In this document: positions 4,185-63,712 of the stretch, piece by piece | How the letters are laid out: the number at the start of each line of letters is the position of its first letter | How positions within the stretch are numbered: the stretch's first letter is position 1 | DNA from: Methanobacteriota archaeon | GTDB lineage: Archaea; Thermoplasmatota; Thermoplasmata; SG8-5; JAGLSY01 | Length of the DNA: 64,000 nucleotides | NCBI GenBank assembly: GCA_020696385.1 | Contig: JAEHCQ010000007.1 | Location: 56,818-120,817 of the forward strand | Direction: 5' to 3' | Notes under the pieces: generated by a model | The model's database searches: none | Told to the model about the DNA's origin: nothing | The model's input: only the letters and a program-made list of their open reading frames with translations | Position numbers and translations under genes: made by a program

Positions 4185-5401
4185 AGATACTGATGATCAT
4201 ATGTGATGGGATGGCTGACAGGCCGTCGAATGAATTGAAGGGCAAGACCCCGATGGAAGCCGCCTCCACGCCGGCCATGGACAAGCTGGCAAAGCAAGGT
4301 TCCAATGGTCTGATGGACCCGATCGGAAAGGGCATAGTTCCAGGTAGTGACACAGCCCATCTTTCACTTTTTGGCTATGATCCATACACTTATTATTGCG
4401 GCAGAGGAACTCTCGAAGCCGCCGGCCTCGGCATTTACATGAAAAATGGCGATGTGGCCTTCAGATGTAATTTCGCGACAGCCGATAGCGACCTGCGGAT
4501 ACTCGACCGCAGGGCTGGCAGAATTGCCTTCGGAACTGAAGAACTGGCCGAGTCCATAAACGGGCTGGTGATCGACGGCGTGAAGGTGATATTCAAGGAC
4601 GCGGTCGAGCATCGTTCCGTCATGGTCCTTCGAGGCCCTGGACTTAGCTCGAATGTTTCTGAGGTCGACCCCCATCACGAGAATGAAATAGCCTGGAAAT
4701 CCGTAGCTACGAAACCTGGCGCGGAGAAGACCGCGGACATACTGAATAAATTCACCAGAATGTCCTTTGACATTCTGCACAAACACCCGATAAATATCGC
4801 AAGAAAGGAAGAGGGATTGCTTCCCGCGAACATCATACTGGCCAGAGGCCCGGGGGACGTGCCAGACATCCCGACCTTCAAAGAGGTTCATGGAATGAAG
4901 GCCTCGGCCATAGTCGGGATCACTCTTGTCAAAGGTCTGTGCCGCATAATTGGAATGGAAGTGCCCGAGATAGAGGGCGCGACCGGAGGAGCGGACACCA
5001 GCCTGCAAAATAAAACGCAGGCTGTCCTGGAAGCTCTGGAAGACCATGACTTCGTGCTGTGGCATATCAAGGCGACCGATGTCTTCGGTCATGATGGCGA
5101 CGCCACTGGCAAAAGGGACTTCATCGAGAAGATCGATGCAAGTTTGGCTGGTTTGGTGGAAAACCTGGATGACCAGGTTCTGATCGCCATAACCGCCGAC
5201 CATTCCACGCCAACCACGGTAAAGGACCATGCTTCCGACCCCGTGCCTTTGCTGATATATGGCAAAGGATTGAGGGCTGATAAAGTACAGGCATTCAATG
5301 AGCTGGAGGTTTCCCAGGGATCCTTGGGAACCATTCAAGGCCTGGAGCTTATGCAGATATTGAAGGGGCTTGGGGGATGGAACGATAAGTTCGGTGCGTA
5401 A
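4181..5401 (+). CDS. apgM: 2,3-bisphosphoglycerate-independent phosphoglycerate mutase (archaeal type)
   Basis: DGMADRP, TPME, PGSDTAHL, GRGTLEAAG, HIKATDVFGHDG, TADHSTP; ATGA overlap with the upstream gene gives start 4181. Confidence 0.93.
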   Translation: MKILMIICDGMADRPSNELKGKTPMEAASTPAMDKLAKQGSNGLMDPIGKGIVPGSDTAHLSLFGYDPYTYYCGRGTLEAAGLGIYMKNGDVAFRCNFATADSDLRILDRRAGRIAFGTEELAESINGLVIDGVKVIFKDAVEHRSVMVLRGPGLSSNVSEVDPHHENEIAWKSVATKPGAEKTADILNKFTRMSFDILHKHPINIARKEEGLLPANIILARGPGDVPDIPTFKEVHGMKASAIVGITLVKGLCRIIGMEVPEIEGATGGADTSLQNKTQAVLEALEDHDFVLWHIKATDVFGHDGDATGKRDFIEKIDASLAGLVENLDDQVLIAITADHSTPTTVKDHASDPVPLLIYGKGLRADKVQAFNELEVSQGSLGTIQGLELMQILKGLGGWNDKFGA

Positions 5402-5453
5402 GCCTTTTCTTACTTCCTATCTACCTTAAATATAATATCGATAATGGCAGTTC

Positions 5454-19675: not shown

Positions 19676-19809
19676 GTAGCTCCGAGCGAGCATGCTAACC
19701 CGAGTTTTCTTTTGCACTGTAATACTTTTCTTTTGGAGGGTTAGCCAGCGCAGCGAGGATAAAAGAAAAGGCTTACGTGGGGATACACAGAAGGCTGGCA
19801 GAATTATAA
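19676..19809 (+). mobile_element. Small structured element (101 bp) plus 33-nt recoded duplicate of the host gene 3' end, copy A
   Basis: Shares CCGAGCGAGCAnGCT and the 25-nt AGCGAGGATAAAAGAAAAGGCTTAC with 44134-44310; 19777-19809 encodes VGIHRRLAEL* versus the gene end VEIHRRLAEL*. Confidence 0.75.
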
Positions 19810-19894
19810 ACATTGCATATGCCAGCAAAGTATATTCTCAACAATGTATATTCGGATCAGTACGAGCATGCCCCGGGGCGAGTGACGCAGACCT

Positions 19895-19932
19895 GGGGTA
19901 CTATATTCTATATCTCAGTGAGTGACAGTTGC
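19895..19932. repeat. Dispersed 38-bp repeat, copy 1 (core of a larger structured repeat)
   Basis: GGGGTACTATATTCTATATCTCAnnGAGTGACAGTTGC, 36/38 identical to 63585-63622. Confidence 0.85.
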
Positions 19933-20156
19933 GATGTGCCAGCAAGAGAATAAACTCCTCGCATTAATAGAGCGAGGAGTCAAATCAATCCCCGCCTCGA
20001 TCAAAGCAGGGGCGGGGTCTTTATCCTCACCCAGCATAACAATTCCATACGAGCTTGCGTAGCGCAAGATCAAAGCAAAAATGCAAGGCCGTATTTGATT
20101 ATGTAGGCTTGATGGAAAGGTATTTTAGATGCTATTCACTTAGTGAATCGGAGAGA

Positions 20157-24371: not shown

Positions 24372-27300
24372 ATGAAACATAATTCATCCATAAAATCGAA
24401 TGATATAGGATCTGCCAGGATACCTTCCTCCAAAGGCTTTACAAATGGCAATTCCGGCCATAACCATACTGGTTTCACCAACGGGAGTACAAAGGCACAG
24501 AAGAACATGACCAACATTGGTGGAATGACCAATGGTGTTCAGAGATCTGGCATGGTGAATGGCAGTGGGATGGTAAATGGTAGCGGGCTCGTTAATGGCA
24601 ACGTTATGGTCAATGGAAATGGACTTGTGAACGGTAATGGTTTGGTAAATGGGAACGGACTCGTTAATGGCAACGGCATGGTCAATGGAAATGGGCTTGT
24701 GAACGGGAACGGTCTCGTCAATGGAACTGGCATGACAAATGGCCTCGTCGGCACTCCAAAGCTCAGTATAAACAATAAAGCAATGGCTCCGAAGAAGACC
24801 TCTTATGTTCTTATCGTGGTCTTCTTACTGATGGTCACCTCGTCCTTCGCAGTATTGACATTCGATGATTCCATAGTGGGAATGCGGGTCGATGGTGATT
24901 TCGCAGACTGGGATGATCAATACCTCATTTCAGACACAAATACAATATCGACAACCTCACTGGACATAGATGAATATGGGGTTTCGACCGATGATAATGG
25001 TGATATGTTCATCTATGCCAAGGCCAAGGGAACCTGGATGGGATCATCAGAAGCAGAGGGCTTGTTGGTCTTCATAGATTCAGATGGTACGGAAAGCACT
25101 GGATACTCCATCGAAGGAATGGGTGCAGACCATGTACTTGAGGTATACGGTTGGGATGGCAAGATATCTGGCAGGCAATTCGGGACCTTCAATGGGGAGG
25201 ACAGTGATGACTATACCTGGTCCTTCGGAAGTGCGAGAGGGGCCATAGGTGAAGAGCATCTGGAAGCAGGCATCCCAATTACACCATCTGCAAATTATAA
25301 ATTATTGTTCATGACCAAGTCTGGAGATGATATTGGCGAGATATGCCCGGCTCAGATATCTGAAGGAAAGGGATCTGTTGTTCTGAAGCAGACACCAGCA
25401 GATGTCAATGGAATAATATCAGCCAATAAATTAATGGATATTCAGGTAACGGCCTATGGAAAGGACGTTACTGTAAGCTCAATTTCAATGAGCGATTCAG
25501 CAGCTAGTGTCTCAGGATTGCCTGTATCGATCAAAGCAGGCGAGACCATCACCCTGACAGCTGAAAAGACCACACCAGCAGCTGGAACACTGATGATGGC
25601 CAAGGTTAATGCCGTGGTGTGTGATGTTCCATATTCCATTACCGGAGAGGGGCTGAAGGCATATGCCTCTGCTGCCCCATCTACAATAACGATCGATGGT
25701 GCATTCGCAGATTGGACGGGCATTAATAAGTCAGCAGATCCGGCAGGAGATGTGAGCAATCCAGGAATAGACATAGTGGAATTCGCTTCTGCAAACACGA
25801 CCACCAATGCCTTCTTCTACCTCAGAACGGACGATGATGGCAAGATGATGGCAGGCTCCCAGGTACCATATAGCAGATACAAACCGACACCATCTACCCA
25901 GCCAAGTACACCAAGTACCAATGGCTCTAGCCAGCCATCTACACCTTCAACACCCAAGAAACTTCCGAAGTTGAGTGGAGAGGATGTTACAAGGATCTAC
26001 ATAGACACCATCCAAAGCATGGATCCATTGGATGGCATGGGAGCTGATTTCCTTATCGAGATAAAGGGAATGAGAGGAAAAGTGACGTCCAGCAAGCTTT
26101 ACTCTTATCCTAATATGGAATTCATAAAGGATGTAAGTGCTGCAAGTGGAAAGCTGGAGCTGGAATCAGGGGTTGGCTTATCAGACATTCAATTCACAAA
26201 TAACATTTCAATATATTTCGAATCAACAGACTGGCAAGGAAACTATGAGATCACCGAGATCATAGACTGCCAGGAATTACAACAGGGGACTAGAGGAGAT
26301 AGTGAAGCAGGGCCAAGTTATACGACCCCTTCCGGACTCAAGGGCCAATGGACCTTTAATGAGGGCTCCGGAGGCACAGCCTATGATATCAGTGGCAATT
26401 ATCACAATCTCACTTTATATAATACCGCAGACTGGGCTACTGGGCTCAATGATACTGGAGCGGTGTTTGACGGAGTGGCGAGTTTAATAGGCAATGATGA
26501 ATTTCCAAGCTATACGGAGATATCCATCGGATACTGGGTACAGAATTCTACAGTGGGTATTCCCAATATTGCCAAGTACAATGACACATGGGACTGGGGA
26601 TATATCGACTACTACACAATGCTTACATCTGATAGCACAGGATACATCGCTTTCGGTGTCAATGCCACTGACAATGTGACAGTAGATAACCTGCCTGCTC
26701 TAGGCAGTGATTGGCGCCATATCATGATCACGGCCAGCAATATCAGTAAAGAGGTCGCGGTCTACTATGATGCAGTTCTTCAAGGATCCAAGACATTTAC
26801 TGGAGATCTAAAAGAGATCGGAAATGGCTGGCTCATGGGCGGCTGGGATGAAGGGATGCCCAGTGATGGAACCATGGATGAATGGAAGATATTCGATAAT
26901 GTCCTTTCAGCAAGCCAGATAACCGCCGAGTATGAAGAGTTCCACCCAGATGCATATGCAGGTCCTGATCAGAATGTGGATGAAGACACTGTCATGTCAT
27001 TCGATGGCTCTGGATCAACTGATAATGATGGTGTAACCAATTGGACCTGGACCTTCACAGATGATGGAGCCAAGACCATATATGGGATCTCGCCATCCTA
27101 TACCTTCAATACGCCTGGCACTTACAATGTCACCCTCACAGTGACCGATGCTTTCATGGGAAACACGGACGAGGACTGGGTACATATCACGGTATTGGAT
27201 GCTACATCTCCAATAATTGAGGATACGACTATTGGTGCACCTATCAACAATGGCACCTTCAATATCACAGCTAAGATTACCGACTTTTCATCCTTGGCAG

Positions 27301-30300
27301 TTACAGAGGTGTATTATTATGTCCTGACAGCAACTGGCTTCACCACTCCGATCACCATAGCGATGGAAGGCTCAGGGCCTTATTACAAAGAGGTGGCTGT
27401 GCCAGAATTCGCCGAGGAATTGGTCTACAGCATAACAGCAACAGACATAGAGGCAAATACGGATTCAACTGCGCTGGAATGGGTATACGCGCAGTCCAAT
27501 GATGACGATACATTCCTTTGGGAGGATATGAACCCAATACCAAGGCCTAACCCGAGATACTACCATGATATGGCCTATGACTCAACGAATGACAAGGTTG
27601 TTCTATTCGGAGGATACAGTGGAGGAGCTTTGGCGGACACCTGGGAATATGATTACAACACAAACACATGGTCAGGGCCATATTATCCTGCATTGAGGCC
27701 GACCGCGAGATATTCACATGCCATGACATTTGATTCAGACAGGGACAAAGTGATATTGTTTGGCGGCTATAGCACCGATAATTACATCTGGGAATATGAT
27801 GTGACAACACATACCTGGGCCGGCCCGATCAACCCAGCCTATAAGCCTGCTTCGACCTATGATCATGAGCTGGTATATGACCCAATCAATGAGAAGGTGA
27901 TCCTCTTTGGTGGAGTGCAGAGTGGTTCTCGCACTAATGCAGTATGGGAGTATTACCCAGCTACTCAACATTGGCAGGGACCCTATTATGGATCTCCCAT
28001 ACCCAGCCCACGGACCCAATACACAATGTCTTATGACTCAGTAGCTGAAAAGGTGATAATGTTTGGCGGAGATGATGGAGCCTTAGATCAGGAGACTTGG
28101 GAGTGGGACCCGACAGCACGCACCTGGAATGGACCATTGATACCAGCCACAAAGCCTAGTATCAGGCGTGATTCAGAGGTGGAGTACTTCACCTCTGAAG
28201 GAAAGCATGTCTTATTCGGGGGCCAGAGTAATAGCTTTGGGCCCCAGGAAACATGGGAATTCAATGAGAGGAATGACTCATGGGTAGGGCCTTTCATGCC
28301 GACAGTCAAGCCCAGCCTGAGATTGGCCCATGCGATGGTCTATGATTCAGAGAGCGACAGGATGATCCTCTTCAGTGGGTGGTGGAGTAGTATATACAGG
28401 CAAGAGACCTATGCAGGCTACTATGACAATCCACCAACAGCACTGGCAGGAGCAGACCAGACCAAGAACGAGGATATCCTGGTCGAATTGAATGCCACCG
28501 CATCCACAGATAACAATCAAATTGATAATTACACATGGTTCTTCAATGATAGTGGGATGCAGTACCTTTACGGTAATGTCACAAATTATACCTTCAGCAC
28601 ACCAGGAATCTATCAGGTGGCCTTGAACACTACCGATGATCTTGGCCAGTGGGATCTGGACTGGACCATCATCACGGTCCTGGATGCCACGAACCCGATA
28701 GCGGATGCGGGTTCAGATCAGATCCTTTACGAAGATGTGGATGTCACCTTCAATGGCTCTGATTCAATGGACAATGTTGGCATTACGAATTACACATGGA
28801 CCTTTGATGATGGAAGCCCAAGAACACTGTACGGTATTGGGCCATCATACTCATTCCCTGTTACCACAAGTGTATATGTTGTGGAGCTCAATGTCACAGA
28901 TGCAGAAGGCAACTGGCACACCAACACGATGACCGTCACAATAGATGATGTGAATACACCGGTCATCACCGACACTACCATTCTTTTCCCTGTGAACGAT
29001 CAGAATTTCAATATCACAGCCGAGATAGAGGACTGGCTGCCTATTACAGCTCATGTGGAATATTATTTCGAGACCATCTCAGGTAACACGACCCTGACCA
29101 ATGTCACAATGGACGTGGGTTCATTCTACAAGGAAATAGCAGTACCTGAATTTGCACAGGTACTTCATTACTCGATAAGAGCAGTTGACTCGGAAGGTAA
29201 CTGGGCCAACACATCCACTGTTGACATGTATGCTCAATCATCGCCAGATTCAACTATCATATGGGAAGGACCATATAATCCAGCGCCCAAGCCAGGAGGC
29301 AGAAGATATGCGGCCATGGCATACGATGAGGCAAATGACAAGGTCGTGATGTTCGGTGGATATAGTGGGGTAAGCTCACTGAGCGACACCTGGGAGTTCG
29401 ATACCAACACCATGACTTGGTCCGGGCCGTACAATCCAGTACCAAAACCGAACCCGAGGTATGGGGCAGAGATGGTGTATGACCCAGTGAGCAATAGAAT
29501 GATCATGTTCGGAGGAGCTTCAGTCGACAACTGGATATGGGAATACGATACCCTCAATCATACCTGGTCCAGCTATGTGCCCGCTTACAAGCCAGATCAG
29601 ACATATTACCACAGGATGGTATATGATTCCGATAATGAAAAGGTCATTCTGTTTGGTGGTATAAGATTCGGATCACGAAGCAACCAGATCTGGGAATATT
29701 TCCCAGATACCAAGCACTGGGAAGGGCCTATCATCCAAGGAGGCATATCCCCAAGGACAGAGTTCGCTATGAGCTATGATCCTATAGCCAAAAAGGCGAT
29801 CATATTCGGTGGATATGATGGATCCAATGACGAACAAACCTGGGAATATGACCCTGCCTCACGGACATCCACCCAGATACTCCCATCATGGAGGCCGAAC
29901 CCAAAATACGGACAGTTCATGGTGTATGTGCCAGACAAGGCTAAGCATGTGATGTTCGGAGGTTTGGGATCTGCTACACAGGAAACATGGGAGTATGATG
30001 GTGTAACACACACATGGAATGGACCGATCATGCCAACACTTAAGCCTGGCAGTAGAGCATGCCACATGATGGCATACGACATTGAGAGTGAAAAGATCGT
30101 GCTATTCGGTGGCTTTGTGGGATCATATTATTCAGATACATGGGCTGGCTATTATGACAATCCACCAACAGCACTAGCTGGCTCAAACCAGACACAGGAC
30201 GAGGATACTGTGGTCTTCTTCAATGGTTCATCCTCATTCGACAATGATGCTGTTACCAATTATACCTGGATCATCGATGATGGAGGATTGCAATACGTAT

Positions 30301-42885: not shown

Positions 42886-44037
42886 TTATTCCCGCAATAC
42901 CTGCCCGGCAATGACCATTTTCTGGACTTCACTAGTACCTTCGTATATCTCGGTTATTTTGGCCTCACGGTACATCCTTTCTACTGCATAATCCTTAATG
43001 TATCCGTAGCCACCATGTATCTGGACAGCATCCGATGTCACTTCTCTGGCGATCTTGGAAGCGTACAGCTTGGCCATCGCGCTTTCTTTGCTGAATCTCG
43101 CTCCCTGGTCCTTCAGATACGCAGCTCTGTAGACGAGATACCTTGCGGCCTCGATCTTTGTCGCCATGTCAGCCAGCATCCACTGGATGGCCTGGAATTT
43201 ACCAATTGGCCTTCCGAACTGCTCGCGCTCCTTCGCATATCTTATGGACTCTTCCATCGCTCCCTCAGCAATGCCAAGTGCCTGGGCGGCAATACCAACC
43301 CTGCCACCGTCCAGCGTGGCCATTCCGATCCTGAAGCCATCTCCTTCCTTGCCGAGGAGATTTTCTTTTGGAACTCGGCAGTTTTCGAATACGAGTTCCG
43401 ACGTTGCGGAAGCACGCACACCCATCTTGTCCTCGACAGTTCCGTAAGTGTAGCCAGGAGTTCCTTTTTCAACAATGATCGTGCTCAATCCCTTGGTTCC
43501 CTTCGAGGGATCCGTGGAAACAATTATGATAGCGACATCGGCCTCGCAGCCGCTTGTAATGAATATCTTGTCGCCATTTATGATATAATCATCCCCATCA
43601 AGAACAGCCTTGGTTCTGACCGCACCAGCATCGGAACCCGCGCTTGGTTCTGTGAGCGCGAAGGCGCCCAGCTTCTCACCACGTGCCAGTGGCTTGAGGA
43701 ACTTTTCTTTTTGTTCCTCAGTTCCGAACTTGTAGATCGGATAGCAGCAGACCGAATTATGCACAGCCATGATCACACTGGTACTGGCGCAAACTTTGGC
43801 GATCTCCTCGATAACAATGGCATAAGAAATGGAATCCACACCAGCCCCGCCATATTCCTTCGGAACTGCCAATCCGAGCATGTTCAGCTTGCCCATCTTC
43901 TTCAGCACGTCCCATGGAAACTCTCCGCTCATGTCAATGTCATGAGCGATGGGCTTGACCTCTTCCTCGGCAAAGCGCCTGGCCATCGTGCGTACCATTT
44001 CCTGTTCCTTGGTAAGATTGAAATCCATTTGATCCAC
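42886..44037 (-). CDS. Acyl-CoA dehydrogenase (butyryl-CoA dehydrogenase-like)
   Basis: [50 protein letters not shown]. Confidence 0.95.
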
Positions 44038-44100
44038 TTCCGCATGCTGTTATAGGACTTGGGAACTTATGATTAGATAAATATGTTTTGAAAACCTTAA

Positions 44101-44310
44101 CTACTTCTTTACAACAATGCTAAGAACATCCTCGTAAGCCTTTTCTTTTATCCTCGCTCCTCTGGCCTGGCTCCTGAATCAAGCTGTTAGCTTGACAAAA
44201 TAGTTGCATGGACTTCGTCCACAACTAAAAAAGAAAAAATCGCCGGAGCTCGGCTATGCCGAGATTCTGAAAGCTCAGCTCTGCTGAGATTCAGCCTGCT
44301 CGCTCGGGTA
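44101..44310 (-). mobile_element. Small structured element (177 bp) plus 33-nt recoded duplicate of the host gene 3' end, copy B
   Basis: Same terminal motifs as 19676-19776 with four extra internal hairpins; 44133-44101 encodes EDVLSIVVKK*, identical in protein to the gene end 44343-44311. Confidence 0.78.
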
Positions 44311-45420
44311 TCATTTCTTGACAACAATGCTCAGCACGTCCTCGTCCTTCAAAACATGGCCAATACTTACTCGCTGGCCAGGGAACTTCGCACTTGGCCC
44401 CCAGACTCGTGCGTATCTGAACTTTTCTCTAAAATCACGATGAAGACTATCGCAAACCACACCCACAGTGGAATCCTCCTTGATGACCAGTGGTTCTATC
44501 AGATCCGCATCCTGGCCCTGTGGTTTGAGGAATATCCTGACGAACTGGCAGATATCGAATATTTCTTGTTTGAATTGCTCGATCATAATGTCTTTCTCGG
44601 CGGACATGCTGAAGACATTCCAGCCATCCAGTGCCTCGATCACCTTGTCCACCTCCTCCTTTGGAAGCAGATCGATCTTATTGAGCACGACTATGGCATC
44701 GACATATACTTTATTCCCGGAGAGATAATCTATGAGCTGGTCCTCATCGATATCTTCCCTCAGGACGATATCGGCATTGATCACTCCATAAGAGGACATG
44801 ATGTTCTTGACCATTTCCTCATCCATCTTGGTCATTTCCACGGTGTGATTGACATTCAGGCCACCCCTGAAGCTCTTGTAAATTCGAATATCGACCGGCC
44901 TCGCATTGAGGCGCATGCCAGCCTTGTAAAGTTCACGGACGATTATATCGATGTCATATCGGAAGACATCGACCATCAGGATGAGCAGATCCGCGCTTCT
45001 AGCTGCTGCTATCACCTCTCTGCCACGCCCTTTTCCCTTGGACGCGTCCTTGATTATACCTGGCAGATCCAAGATCTGCACCTTCGCACCCTGATAATCC
45101 ATTATTCCTGGCACGACATCCAGGGTGGTGAATTCATAACGACCAACTTCACTGGTGGCGTCGGTTATCTTGTTAAGGAGAGTTGATTTTCCCACGGATG
45201 GAAATCCCACGAGAGCGACTGTGGCATTACCTGATTTCTTCACAGCATATGATTTACCACCACCCGAGCTGGCTGCTCTTCTTTTTTCCTGATCATCCTT
45301 GAGCCTCGCCATCTTGGCTTTCAGCTTGCCAATATGATGCTGGGTGTTCTTATTGTACTTCGTCTTCGCAATCTCTGCCTCGATGTCCGCGATCTGTTCT
45401 TCAATATTACCCATGTTCAA
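44311..45420 (-). CDS. DRG/RBG1-family GTPase with TGS domain
   Basis: YNKNT.HHIG.LKAK, GFPSVGKST, YEFTTL, DLPGII, GKGRG, ARVWG.SAKF.GQ. Confidence 0.95.
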   Translation of the reverse strand: MNMGNIEEQIADIEAEIAKTKYNKNTQHHIGKLKAKMARLKDDQEKRRAASSGGGKSYAVKKSGNATVALVGFPSVGKSTLLNKITDATSEVGRYEFTTLDVVPGIMDYQGAKVQILDLPGIIKDASKGKGRGREVIAAARSADLLILMVDVFRYDIDIIVRELYKAGMRLNARPVDIRIYKSFRGGLNVNHTVEMTKMDEEMVKNIMSSYGVINADIVLREDIDEDQLIDYLSGNKVYVDAIVVLNKIDLLPKEEVDKVIEALDGWNVFSMSAEKDIMIEQFKQEIFDICQFVRIFLKPQGQDADLIEPLVIKEDSTVGVVCDSLHRDFREKFRYARVWGPSAKFPGQRVSIGHVLKDEDVLSIVVKK

Positions 45421-51194: not shown

Positions 51195-51267
51195 GGGCCC
51201 GTGGGGTAGTTTGGTATCCTTGTACTCTGGGGGGGTATAAACTCCGGTTCAAATCCGGGCGGGCCCA
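51195..51267 (+). tRNA. tRNA-Pro (GGG); CCA not encoded
   Basis: GGGCCCG/CGGGCCC acceptor, GTACT-CTGGGGG-GGTAT anticodon arm, GGTTCAAATCC; canonical position after rpoN. Confidence 0.85.
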
Positions 51268-51348
51268 CTTTTTTACTTTAAAAGCCTTTTAGTACACCTA
51301 TAACGGCCGTCCAGCACAAATTGATTATGGTGGCCCAACCCCCAGTCA

Positions 51349-52437: not shown

Positions 52438-52602
52438 ATGAAGAACATCATGAAAGAAGTGATTAGAATACTGATCGGACGCCGAAAAGGCGGTGCAGCC
52501 TATGGATTCAGCAATTCGGTAGAATCCCGTGCAGCCTATGGATTCAGCAATTCGGTAGAATCCCTGATAACAGGACAAAGAATCAGGACATCAATAGTCT
52601 GA
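52438..52602 (+). CDS. Small peptide (54 aa) with a duplicated AAYGFSNSVES segment
   Basis: GAGGTG RBS; MKNIMKEVIRILIGRRKGGAAYGFSNSVESRAAYGFSNSVESLITGQRIRTSIV; below the ORF-track cutoff. Confidence 0.5.
   Translation: MKNIMKEVIRILIGRRKGGAAYGFSNSVESRAAYGFSNSVESLITGQRIRTSIV
52493..52564 (+). repeat. Perfect 36-bp tandem duplication
   Basis: GTGCAGCCTATGGATTCAGCAATTCGGTAGAATCCC x2. Confidence 0.95.
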
Positions 52603-58194: not shown

Positions 58195-58327
58195 ACTGGT
58201 TAAACTAGTTACTTAAAATAAATGGGCCCTTCTTGCCTGAAATCTGCCTGGGCCCACTTTTTTACTTTAAAAGCCTTTTAGTACACCTATATCGACGACC
58301 CAATATCAACTCATTTTGATATGCCAC

Positions 58328-63584: not shown

Positions 63585-63622
63585 GGGGTACTATATTCTA
63601 TATCTCAACGAGTGACAGTTGC
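63585..63622. repeat. Dispersed 38-bp repeat, copy 2
   Basis: 36/38 identical to 19895-19932, same orientation. Confidence 0.85.
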
Positions 63623-63712
63623 AGAGTGCTCTGATATTCGGAACCCCGTCTGTAGGGCGAGGGGGTCAAACTTTCTGAAACCCCCAGCACCCGTAAAAAT
63701 AATGATCATCAA

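Follow-up and report, generated by a model that had tools for sequence, protein, structure and literature searches.

The stretch of DNA analysed here (the window; 64,000 nucleotides (nt) of contig JAEHCQ010000007.1, GenBank assembly GCA_020696385.1, from a Methanobacteriota archaeon) carries two copies, A and B, of a repeat here called element E, both of which begin no more than 7 nt past the stop codon of an unrelated same-strand gene. Upstream of copy A lies the gene of a 531-aa DUF2779 protein; the gene upstream of copy B encodes a 369-aa GTPase with the domains MMR_HSR1, MMR_HSR1_Xtn and TGS (a set labelled "Drg-type" here), and an acyl-CoA dehydrogenase gene lies downstream of this copy. 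No nuclease or transposase gene stands beside copy A or B. The two have in common an 11-nt 5′ block, CCGAGCGAGCA, and a 37-nt 3′ block, seen as a 92% inverted match, and every sequence that an initial annotation of the window had named in them was recovered at its place. That annotation had described a conserved fold with a closing stem, a long-range pairing of U-rich and A-rich tracts, and a putative guide next to the 3′ block. The analysis of the whole family suggests that E is, on balance, probably a family of mobile cassettes whose folded strand, CCGAGCGAGCA...AAAAGAAAAGGCTTMC, gives a hairpin, pseudoknot and triplex RNA at the 3′ ends of genes. The positions of the parts in the window are collected in Table 1.

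Table 1. Parts of element copies A and B and the duplicated gene end at copy B, in window coordinates (R1, R2: covariance models; E: expectation value)
Feature	Position	Strand	Basis or remark
Copy A, element E, complete short form (96 nt)	19682..19777	+	R1 107.4 bits, E 7.7e-21; R2 98.3 bits
Copy A, 5′ strand of helix P1a (CCGAGCGAGCA)	19682..19692	+	partner is the linker 19747-19758, with tandem G.A pairs between
Copy A, arm1 GCTAACCC of helix P1b	19694..19701	+	partner is arm2 GGGTTAGC, 19738-19745
Copy A, U1 (TTTTCTTTT), proposed Hoogsteen (parallel) strand	19705..19713	+	family-wide parallel-register covariation with the tail
Copy A, second occurrence of TTTTCTTTT	19726..19734	+	
Copy A, pseudoknot 5′ strand	19719..19734	+	GTAA of the distal helix, TA internal loop, CTTTTCTTTT as U2 (Watson-Crick strand)
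Copy A, 3′ tail AAAAGAAAAGGCTTAC	19761..19776	+	A-tract with U2, TTAC with GTAA; end of pairing is end of element
Copy A, A-tract AAAAGAAAA	19761..19769	+	
Copy B, element E, long form with two nested two-hairpin modules	44134..44307	-	R1 match (36 bits, E 3.1e-5, over 44133-44253), minimum-energy fold
Copy B, 5′ block	44307-44297	-	
Copy B, inserted module 1, hairpins CTCAGC-aga-GCTGAG and CTCGGC-ata-GCCGAG	44249..44288	-	minimum-energy fold
Copy B, U-run	44239-44227	-	
Copy B, inserted module 2, hairpins TAGTTGTGGAC-gaa-GTCCATGCAACTA and TCAAGCT-aac-AGCTTGA	44179..44227	-	minimum-energy fold
Copy B, P1a 3′ strand (CCAGAGGAGCGAGG), then AT, then A-tract AAAAGAAAA	44141..44165	-	sequence, model placement
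Copy B, A-tract	44149-44141	-	
X_up, last 11 codons and TGA stop of the Drg-type GTPase gene (open reading frame 44311-45420)	44311..44345	-	gene-attached copy
X_dn, second copy of the GTPase gene end (EDVLSIVVKK, stop TAG)	44101..44135	-	directly 3′ of copy B, 3-nt (ACG) junction overlap

E is a non-coding family of about 95 nt, whose inserts span 96-236 nt and hold no long open reading frame of their own. In the host assembly (G000; 2.28 Mb in 50 contigs, 94.5% complete) the 13-mer AAAAGAAAAGGCT occurs in 23 exact copies, with an estimated chance expectation of about 0.07. An alignment of 18 short copies (A1) was the source of the covariance model R1, which matched 39 places in G000 at E <= 0.01; there are hence at least 39 copies in the assembly and not the two that had first been noticed. 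Matches to R1 were present in 20 of 22 genomes of the order, with 3-36 in each, and in 31 of 151 sampled genomes of the class Thermoplasmata, including four further families and genomes that consist of a single contig. An assembly artefact is ruled out by this recurrence in other assemblies and by the single-contig genomes. The records that bear E are named "MAG: Thermoplasmata archaeon", "Methanomassiliicoccales archaeon UBA147/UBA280" or "Methanobacteriota archaeon", and one of the 26 matches of a pattern search fell in a Hymenobacter contig, probably by chance. At gathering score, Rfam returned only tRNA across the window; up to E = 10, the two loci gave eight chance-level matches (best E = 2.7), none of them an element for nuclear expression (ENE) or near its gathering score. 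A literature search, which took in parts of the papers and excluded supplements, found no such element described in archaea.

The core of E is an irregular hairpin of about 20 steps (P1), in which the 5′ block pairs with a 3′ linker (P1a) and arm1 pairs with arm2 (P1b). RNAalifold, applied to A1, recovered the arm1-arm2 helix together with a pairing, overlooked by the initial annotation, of the 5′ block and the linker CAGCRCAGCGAGG ahead of the A-tract; compensatory changes occur in 8 of the 11 pairs, among them the P1a pairs 5-82, 6-81, 9-78 and 10-77. Over a 15-pair hairpin, 89.8% of the alignment cells of A1 were paired versus 72.9% after shuffling, and 9/15 pairs had changed on both sides (43 such cells versus 13.2 in shuffles). 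The corresponding values in A2, a model-fitted alignment of 52 distinct copies from seven genomes, were 90.8% versus 71.2%, 12/15 pairs, and 141 cells versus 41.1. In neither alignment did any of 500 shuffles reach the observed pairing, and controls in which the pairing was slid stayed at or below 38.3% (A1) and 39.3% (A2). One column pair of P1b, for example, holds GC:11 AU:7 in A1 and AU:25 GC:21 in A2.

Conserved G.A/A.G tandems lie between the Watson-Crick pairs of the hairpin. In 6 of the 52 copies of A2 the GA/GA columns are UU/AA, the 5′ GA being replaced by TT and its partner GA by AA, which argues that these columns face each other and that the helix is continuous. Across the paired columns of A2, A.C/C.A combinations number 4 and G.U/U.G combinations 34, and read on the opposite strand the conserved G.A tandems would be mismatches of pyrimidine with pyrimidine. 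The G.U excess and the purine-purine mismatches therefore identify the folded strand as CCGAGCGAGCA...AAAAGAAAAGGCTT, a choice that the initial annotation had left to either strand; it is co-oriented with the upstream gene in both window copies. P1 does not consist of one motif in two inverted copies. Its strands pair through conserved G.A mismatches and are asymmetric owing to a 2x3 loop. A reading of the G.A motifs as a K-turn was rejected on inspection, as a 3-nt bulge with tandem G.A after it, on the strand that bulges, is absent. The earlier suggestion that structure was kept through sequence change is thus borne out by the covariation of the family, with A1 and A2 far above their shuffles, and a putative functional single-stranded scaffold is supported.

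The window copies represent two forms of this design. The minimum-energy fold of copy A is the hairpin supported by covariation, and its arms are the closing stem that had been proposed for it. The stem proposed for copy B, GGCT-GAATC/GATTC-agg-AGCC, is complementary but not homologous to that of copy A: in the family alignment, copy B's GGCTGAATC... falls in a two-hairpin module inserted behind the 5′ block, and the two sides of the proposed stem are the beginning of module 1 and the end of module 2. The homologous arms of copy B would instead be the weak CUCCGGC / GCC(A)GG, as read from the alignment, the fold and the 36-bit model placement. The four short hairpins that had been assigned to copy B are each present in its minimum-energy fold. 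Module 1 lies between the 5′ block and arm1, whereas module 2 occupies the place of the loop and of the second U-rich run (U2) of the short forms, and the same double-hairpin module recurs inside other long forms; pieces of the modules were found independently at 87-96% identity in G000 and in the genomes G001 and G002, the stretch of module 1 having copies 92-96% identical at other loci of G001 and G002 and recurring in G000. When single copies were folded and compared with shuffled sequences, the result was not significant (z = +0.14 for A and -1.5 for B, both in sense).

The second structural layer involves the 3′ tail, nn-AAAAGAAAA-GG-C-TTMC, and the 3′ half of the apical loop, GKAA-nn-CC-TT(G)TTCTTTT, which are complementary to each other. 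Of the two U-rich runs, the tail prefers the side of U2 over that of the first run (U1) in every one of 42 short copies, and the tail-loop duplex has a uniform shape of 10-13 A/U-rich pairs, an internal loop of 1-2 nt and a distal helix of 4-5 bp (-14.4 kcal/mol in copy A). The mean binding of a loop was -15.3 kcal/mol with its own tail, -11.6 with the tails of other copies and -7.7 with shuffled tails. In A3, a plain MAFFT alignment of 41 short copies, 15 pseudoknot pairs were paired in 87.7% of cells versus 81.9% after shuffling (0/500 shuffles), with 10/15 pairs changed on both sides in 39 cells versus 12.8; in A4, which holds 55 distinct copies fitted to the tail-loop helix, 93.8% of cells were paired and 14/15 pairs had changed on both sides (90 cells versus 22.4). 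The distal helix exists as GGAA/TTCC (16), GTAA/TTAC (8) and GTGA/TCAC (3), and once each as CCCC/GGGG, AGAA/TTCT and GGGA/TCCC, and subfamilies with altered tracts have changed both strands: AAAGGAAAAGG goes with CCTTTTCCTTT, AAAAAGAAGAA with TTCTTCTTTTT, and AAAAGAAAAATA with TATTTTTCTTTT. The long-range pairing of the initial annotation is accordingly real, and it covaries in the plain as well as in the fitted alignment. The last base of the distal helix is also the 3′ boundary of E, as determined from its junctions with flanking DNA.

The third layer concerns U1, which is the mirror image of U2, so that its sequence read 5′ to 3′ matches the tail read 5′ to 3′, T standing opposite A and C opposite G. 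At locus L144 the tail is AAAAGGAAA, U1 is TTTTCCTTT and U2 is TTTCCTTTT; at L130 they are AAAAGAAAAA, TTTTCTTTTT and TTTTTCTTTT. Copy A alone is uninformative on the register of U1, its tract being symmetric. Over 62 copies with asymmetric tracts (21 distinct tracts), the parallel register was better for U1 in 38, tied in 24 and worse in none, and for U2 the antiparallel register was better in 53, tied in 8 and worse in 1. In a test anchored on the first C or G, which included 74 of 81 distinct short copies, U1 matched in parallel in 349/444 cells versus 296.7 with shuffled tails, and U2 in antiparallel in 368/444 versus 312.5 (0/2000 in both cases). The states of U1 and tail in this test include TTTCTTTCTC/AAAGAAAGAG, TTTCTTTCCC/AAAGAAAGGG and TTTCTTTTTC/AAAGAAAAAG; the first two, along with TTTCTTTTCC/AAAGAAAAGG, are parallel matches from other families of the class. 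Such a match lies beyond Watson-Crick pairing, and a pyrimidine-motif triple helix (U.A-U, C+.G-C) can account for it. By eye, a single purine often interrupts U1 2-3 positions past the C, and a bulged G occupies the corresponding place of U2 in the main subfamily. The likeness to triplex cores remarked on in the initial annotation has thus gained a signature in the parallel-register covariation of the first U-run with the tail, and an ENE-like triple helix appears, from these sequence patterns, to be the best-supported account of the U/A tracts. The three layers (the hairpin, the tail with U2 and the distal helix, and the U1 mirror) change in step among the copies. Copy B has neither U2 nor a partner for the distal helix; broken by its nested hairpin modules, it probably has the triple helix out of its reach. 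A solitary tail-like sequence, AAGTAAGAAAAGGCTTACG, stands at window 5397-5420 (-) without other parts of E nearby and is a remnant or a chance match.

The distribution of the flanking sequences showed how E sits in the genome. In G002, the closest relative (85-91% identity), an empty site with one copy of the target was found at 4/4 loci tested, the matched segments overlapping by 11, ~203, 165 and 116 nt. The usual landing place of E is just past a same-strand stop codon or tRNA, a second copy of the final 22-300 nt of the target then standing behind its 3′ end. This duplication was seen for 19/23 exact-tail copies of G000, with an aligned length of 22-293 nt, and for 12/35 testable copies of other genomes; by our own classification, 17 of the 19 duplication loci are the end of a same-strand gene (14) or of a tRNA (3). 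The junctions of E have a 1-3 nt overlap or 1-6 G-rich filler bases, the homology of the duplicate mostly halts at the stop codon, and an unrelated leader of 0-50 nt precedes the 5′ block. Decayed remnants of the element stand behind the displaced copy at five loci, from which it follows that new units add on the gene side. E is thus a mobile, non-coding, structure-selected cassette.

At copy B, the final 31 nt of the GTPase gene (DEDVLSIVVKK and the stop) are what is duplicated. X_dn and X_up differ at five third-codon positions and the stop (four of them within the 31-nt alignment, the rest by eye), and G002 has a single copy here, continuous with X_dn and the downstream DNA. Searching metagenomes with the GTPase protein yielded 11 loci, of which the closest had 77% amino-acid identity, too distant to reveal the donor configuration. 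The second gene end behind copy B, passed over as such by the initial annotation, is what had been taken for a guide in the proposed kinship with the guide RNAs of TnpB, Cas12f or IscB. E would then be a scaffold whose flank is the guide. That E is non-coding, structured, equipped with a pseudoknot or triplex and located at the margin of a mobile unit, and that its flank matches a sequence in the upstream gene, would be in keeping with that idea. The idea fails, since E follows unrelated housekeeping genes with no nuclease gene adjoining, the comparison with Rfam (HEARO and others) gave nothing even up to E = 10 beyond the chance-level matches, and the TnpB zinc-ribbon family PF07282 has 0 matches in this 94%-complete genome, in a search that was positive in 8/14 control genomes and did not extend to the domains specific to IscB. 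Moreover, the flank is often identical to the gene copy over 30-100 nt, so that the locus would target itself, and a guide RNA is hardly credible as an account of E.

The tRNA targets recall another process, since integration by an integrase is classically recognised by duplicated 3′ ends of tRNAs. The copies of E could in principle be att-site remnants of larger integrated plasmids or viruses that were later deleted, for which the stacks of cassettes behind tRNA genes would speak; at least 19 different targets in one genome, each with the same ~95-nt element alone, the variable and imprecise duplication lengths and junctions, and the structural selection on the element itself make this very improbable. 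At one of the tRNA duplication loci, on contig C50, the whole tRNA and the end of an IS200 transposase gene are repeated. The arrangement there (G000:C50:510-3857, locus L156) comprises the sole IS200-type transposase gene (143 aa), a conserved hairpin region, tRNA-Phe(GAA) of 87 nt and then E, past which follow the gene end in a diverged second copy, the hairpin region again and a second intact tRNA-Phe(GAA) of 88 nt; the two tRNAs differ by paired stem changes. On contig C47 (G000:C47:165285-165381), E stands beside the start codon of an opposite-strand gene, and about 30 nt of the 5′ end of the gene are, by eye, weakly repeated behind it; targets are therefore not 3′ ends only.

The differences between target copies fall on codon positions 1, 2 and 3 as 17/10/72 in G000 and as 2/2/34 in relatives, and with this third-position bias they are not the decay of a displaced, non-coding copy. 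A diversity-generating retroelement was also rejected, since the differences between gene-end copies are not confined to adenines. At C46:100239, the first 150 nt of the duplicated segment in G002 agree with X_up at 9 and with X_dn at 2 differing positions, the middle 50 nt are identical, and the last 35 nt agree with X_up at 2 and with X_dn at 7; relative to G002 the two copies are reciprocal mosaics (Fisher p = 0.02). A comparison of both copies with G002 and G001 at four loci, meant to tell which copy is native, was mixed: X_dn was favoured at copy B (by eye) and at C33:252820 (4 vs 0), X_up at C11:577142 (5 vs 1), and C46 is the mosaic. The donor may itself resemble G002, and polarity is therefore not assignable from these loci, so that the mosaic alone is informative. 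Two steps are proposed. A primary insertion would make the long target duplication, after which homologous recombination, or a single crossover of a circular form, would carry the allele that bears E from one related lineage to another; exchange points inside the duplicated segments would then give differences confined almost purely to third codon positions.

Which enzymes might move E was approached through the gene content of G000. Reverse transcriptase PF00078 has 0 matches in the genome, which weakens retro-type models and leaves other polymerases possible. There is exactly one Y1 transposase gene in G000, and the Y1 family was found in 16/22 genomes of the order with 1-3 copies each (7/7 of the high-quality ones). 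REP and REPIN hairpins are substrates of the REP-associated tyrosine transposases (RAYT), and the ends of IS200/IS605 elements are substrates of TnpA. The fold of E might thus be, in a REPIN-like manner, that of single-stranded DNA (ssDNA) at replication forks, a substrate of the Y1 (HUH) transposase for which any effect in RNA is incidental. One copy of E does lie 320 nt downstream of the Y1 gene in G000, and G.T wobbles, tandem G.A pairs and T.A-T / C+.G-C triplexes are all possible in DNA too. Transposition of the IS200/IS605 type is not known to duplicate its target and relies on a short target that is fixed, unlike the junctions of E with their 0-6 filler bases, 1-3 nt overlaps and duplications of 22-300 nt. 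The Y1 protein scored 119.5 bits with the NCBIfam model for IS200/IS605 TnpA (cut-off 55) and 28 bits with the RAYT model (cut-off 80), and hence is an ordinary TnpA; E lies within 1.5 kb of a Y1 gene at 1/21 loci, in G000 only, whereas RAYT genes characteristically accompany their REPs. Six genomes positive for E have no detected Y1 gene, though they are just 59-83% complete. Among REPINs, compensatory hairpin changes "in ssDNA or mRNA" are common and the transposases are single-copy, according to the parts of PMC3116915 and PMC5581495 that were available. With these points on its two sides, a Y1 substrate is judged a rather unlikely explanation for E. In three other genomes (G011:C77:8060-8859, G014:C21:3196-4005 and G015:C112:2666-3434), the Y1 gene has, 250-450 nt downstream, a second partial match that covers just its C-terminal half; this resembles the long target duplications left by E, perhaps through a cassette that R1 does not detect.

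E might also act simply as a two-way stop for transcription, as archaeal RNA polymerase terminates at oligo-T. The T-runs U1 and U2 would serve the sense strand and the complement of the A-tract the opposite strand, with the fold as a by-product or aid, and the placement of E directly behind stop codons and tRNA ends is what would be expected of such a stop. So is the situation in other families of the class, where the tail complement starts 0-1 nt past a convergent tRNA gene. The T-runs are mostly of four T, interrupted by C, and termination at T-runs requires no hairpin, distal helix or mirror symmetry, yet all three covary. Were transcripts to stop at U1 or U2, moreover, the RNA would lack the tail and could not account for the covariation of tail and loop, and this explanation is considered improbable. 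The convergent loci (tRNA-Pro, -Val and -Arg; L189-L199 in genomes G029, G032, G041, G061 and G070) fit either a preference for tRNA ends as targets or a role of the tail complement in termination. At L192, a sense fragment resembling a tRNA 3′ end lies about 40 nt upstream of E, so that, by eye, inverted tRNA ends bracket the element.

The reading that is preferred for E takes the folded molecule to be RNA, which would be made as a 3′ extension of the upstream gene. U1, tail and U2 would assemble into a pyrimidine-motif triple helix (U.A-U with C+.G-C) that buries the 3′ end, as the ENE and A-rich tract do in MALAT1 and in transposon RNAs, and the buried end would stabilise the transcript or define where it stops. 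How the layers are combined in one molecule is less straightforward. In copy A the nearest-neighbour energies are comparable, at about -9.4 kcal/mol for the hairpin base (-21.1 vs -11.7) and -10.2 to -14.4 for the tail-loop helix. With arm1:arm2 alone, an arrangement in which the 15-nt linker spans the 9-bp helix as the third loop of an H-type pseudoknot could form, and GAG and U1 would in that case occupy the deep groove.

A number of observations weigh against this reading of E. The tail begins 2-3 nt past the base of the ~20-step hairpin, while the partner required by its first A, the final U of U2, is 3 nt from the hairpin apex; with the tail at the base of the stem and its partner at the apex, the hairpin base and the pseudoknot are therefore incompatible in a straight monomer. 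Since both sets of pairs covary, they would have to be alternative states, or be reached together only in an antiparallel head-to-tail dimer or with a sharp bend of the stem. In the pseudoknot, slid controls are already 56-77% paired in the A/U part, because the tract is homopolymer-like, most of the signal is carried by the distal helix and the G/C positions, and G.U (25) exceeds A.C (12) only two to one. For the triplex, the margins between the parallel and antiparallel registers are just 1-2 positions per copy. As the repeat copies are related, the shuffle controls overstate significance, and A2 and A4 were fitted to the structures being tested. The covariation arguments would suit single-stranded DNA equally, and the U-runs might stop archaeal transcription ahead of the tail. 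A search for sequencing runs that cover window 43700-45000 returned no RNA run and a single DNA run, with a 0.06 share of words. A crude count of orientation over all copies was not clean. By counting stop-to-stop open reading frames, a same-strand gene end within 100 nt upstream was found for 16/36 copies in G000 and 19/49 in relatives, and a convergent gene end downstream for 9/36 and 18/56, the downstream count being inflated by spurious antisense frames and convergent gene pairs; the orientation of E is accordingly taken from the duplication loci. In the other families of the class, the 3′ end of E meets the 3′ end of an opposite-strand tRNA, 0-1 nt apart, at 8/10 loci (ARAGORN), and with such tail-to-tail arrangements the rule that E is sense to the upstream gene is not general.

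The structure and the mobility of E can be joined in a more ambitious reading, which is put forward tentatively and is doubtful as it stands, namely that of a 3′-end module of the MALAT1 type in archaea that is at the same time a selfish mobile element. E would add a self-capping, blunt-ended triple helix to the gene or tRNA transcripts behind which it lands, and a switch would have the long hairpin as one state and the triplex pseudoknot as the other, or else these two would be how a head-to-tail dimer makes its contacts. In the mobile intermediate, the fixed end would be this protected end of RNA (or DNA), and an intermediate of this kind would explain the 3′ boundary at the last paired base, the filler bases at the junctions and the gene end that travels with E. 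RNase P sets the 3′ end of MALAT1; next to a convergent tRNA, E would likewise have its 3′ end set, by cleavage at the tRNA-like complement.

Several further repeats were seen in the window. A family of about 225 nt that is unrelated to E lies 40 nt behind copy A (window 19817-20042, +) and again at window 63585-63629; its motifs are GCATGCCCCG..GGGGTACTATATTC..GAGTGACAGT..GAGTGC, followed by CCCCGCC/GGGGCGGGG hairpins, and it occurs in at least 10 places of G002 at 74-83% identity and behind E at three other loci of G000, with no match in Rfam. The segments 51251-51329 and 58240-58318 form a 79-nt direct repeat of 80% identity, which starts within the 3′ end of tRNA-Pro(GGG) (51195-51268) and runs through a T-run and a TTTAAAAG box, and may be another duplicated tRNA end. 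A 36-nt unit, GTGCAGCCTATGGATTCAGCAATTCGGTAGAATCCC, is present in two exact tandem copies at 52493-52564. Two repeats lie inside large open reading frames: an 18-nt periodic coding repeat rich in AATGG/GGTAA (24548-24745) and eight copies of a ~300-nt repeat with Kelch-like spacing (27570-30225).

Among known systems, the omega RNA (HEARO) of TnpB and IscB resembles E as a pseudoknotted RNA at the end of a mobile element, near sequence derived from the flank. E differs from it in that no TnpB gene was found (IscB was outside the search), no Rfam match was obtained and E does not lie at the 3′ end of a nuclease gene. A comparison with miniature inverted-repeat transposable elements revealed no longer parent with the same ends in the R1 searches, a search dedicated to this not having been made, and E is unlike these elements in its long and variable duplications and its 5′ boundary, which is not fixed. 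REPINs are extragenic hairpins of bacteria, ~70-110 nt long and present in tens to hundreds of copies, and REPIN/RAYT systems share with E the compensatory hairpin changes, the clusters and stacks and the single-copy Y1 gene in the genome (parts of PMC3116915 and PMC5581495). E, however, is not an inverted pair of REPs, its Y1 gene is of the IS200 type and is not flanked by E, and E has a pseudoknot or triplex and long target duplications.

The mode of insertion of E has its closest parallel in restriction-modification units. Furuta, Abe and Kobayashi (2010, PMC2853133) described such units, which are flanked by imperfect target repeats (46-423 bp), frequently occupy gene ends or tRNAs and occur mostly in naturally competent species; their survey contained no archaeal case, and the authors proposed a cycle of insertion, repeat-mediated amplification, release and re-entry. 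These units and E have in common the direct repeats of the target, the gene 3′ ends and tRNAs, and the lack of a transposase or integrase in the insert, and for E the empty site with a single target in a relative and the variable repeats of 22-293 nt, with no mobility gene in the insert, agree with this pattern. E differs in carrying ~95 nt of structured non-coding cargo, in its one fixed end and in its dozens of copies. It offers a clear non-coding, multi-copy case of insertion accompanied by a long duplication of the target, a process whose mechanism is unexplained and which the fixed end, filler bases and mosaic flanks of E constrain; for annotation, E also explains many of the oddities of Thermoplasmata genomes that consist of a "duplicated gene-end" or a "duplicated tRNA-end".

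As regards the fold, the pseudoknots of telomerase RNA and of the SAM-II and preQ1-II riboswitches likewise pair a hairpin loop with a downstream strand (PMC13541005, in part), and in H-type pseudoknots the first loop, which would be GAG and U1 in E, lies in the deep groove, where U.A-U triples are possible. These are single-copy functional RNAs and not mobile repeats, and the third loop in E would be the 15-nt linker that otherwise pairs with the 5′ block.

The nearest relatives in design are the ENE triple helices, a comparison that draws in part on PMC13541005, PMC8457004 and PMC4824109. ENEs are known from viruses, vertebrate long non-coding RNAs and transposons of plants and fungi, and the prokaryotic triple helices listed are those of riboswitches; the available portion of PMC13541005 names no ENE from archaea. 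E differs from them in its archaeal host and in having no match to an ENE in Rfam, and its triple helix is a candidate predicted from sequence patterns. Its tail continues into a Watson-Crick distal helix of 4 bp, which leaves the 3′ end fully paired, and a long second helix, that of the 5′ block with the linker, competes with the pseudoknot. In ENEs with their A-rich tracts (the PAN ENE of Kaposi's sarcoma-associated herpesvirus (KSHV), MALAT1/MEN-beta, the plant and fungal transposon ENEs and double ENEs), as in E, U-rich strands closed by a stem flank a loop or stem-loop: in 41 short copies of E, U1 and U2 flank a 12-nt loop (or inserted hairpins) closed by P1b, and the tail 3′ of this clamp pairs Watson-Crick with U2. 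In both, the A-rich tract is encoded in the genome and lies at the 3′ end, downstream of the U-rich strands, and C stands opposite G within the match; ENEs occupy the 3′ ends of transcripts, those of mobile elements included, as E is predicted to do. The 3′ end of MALAT1 is cut beside a tRNA-like structure (PMC8457004 and PMC4824109, in the parts available), and E often abuts a tRNA gene. At about 95 nt, E is a small and naturally varied test set for the rules of triplex formation, with its C+.G-C positions, interruptions and bulges, and as a covariation-backed archaeal candidate on a mobile element that attaches to gene ends it would extend a device of the ENE kind to a third domain of life.

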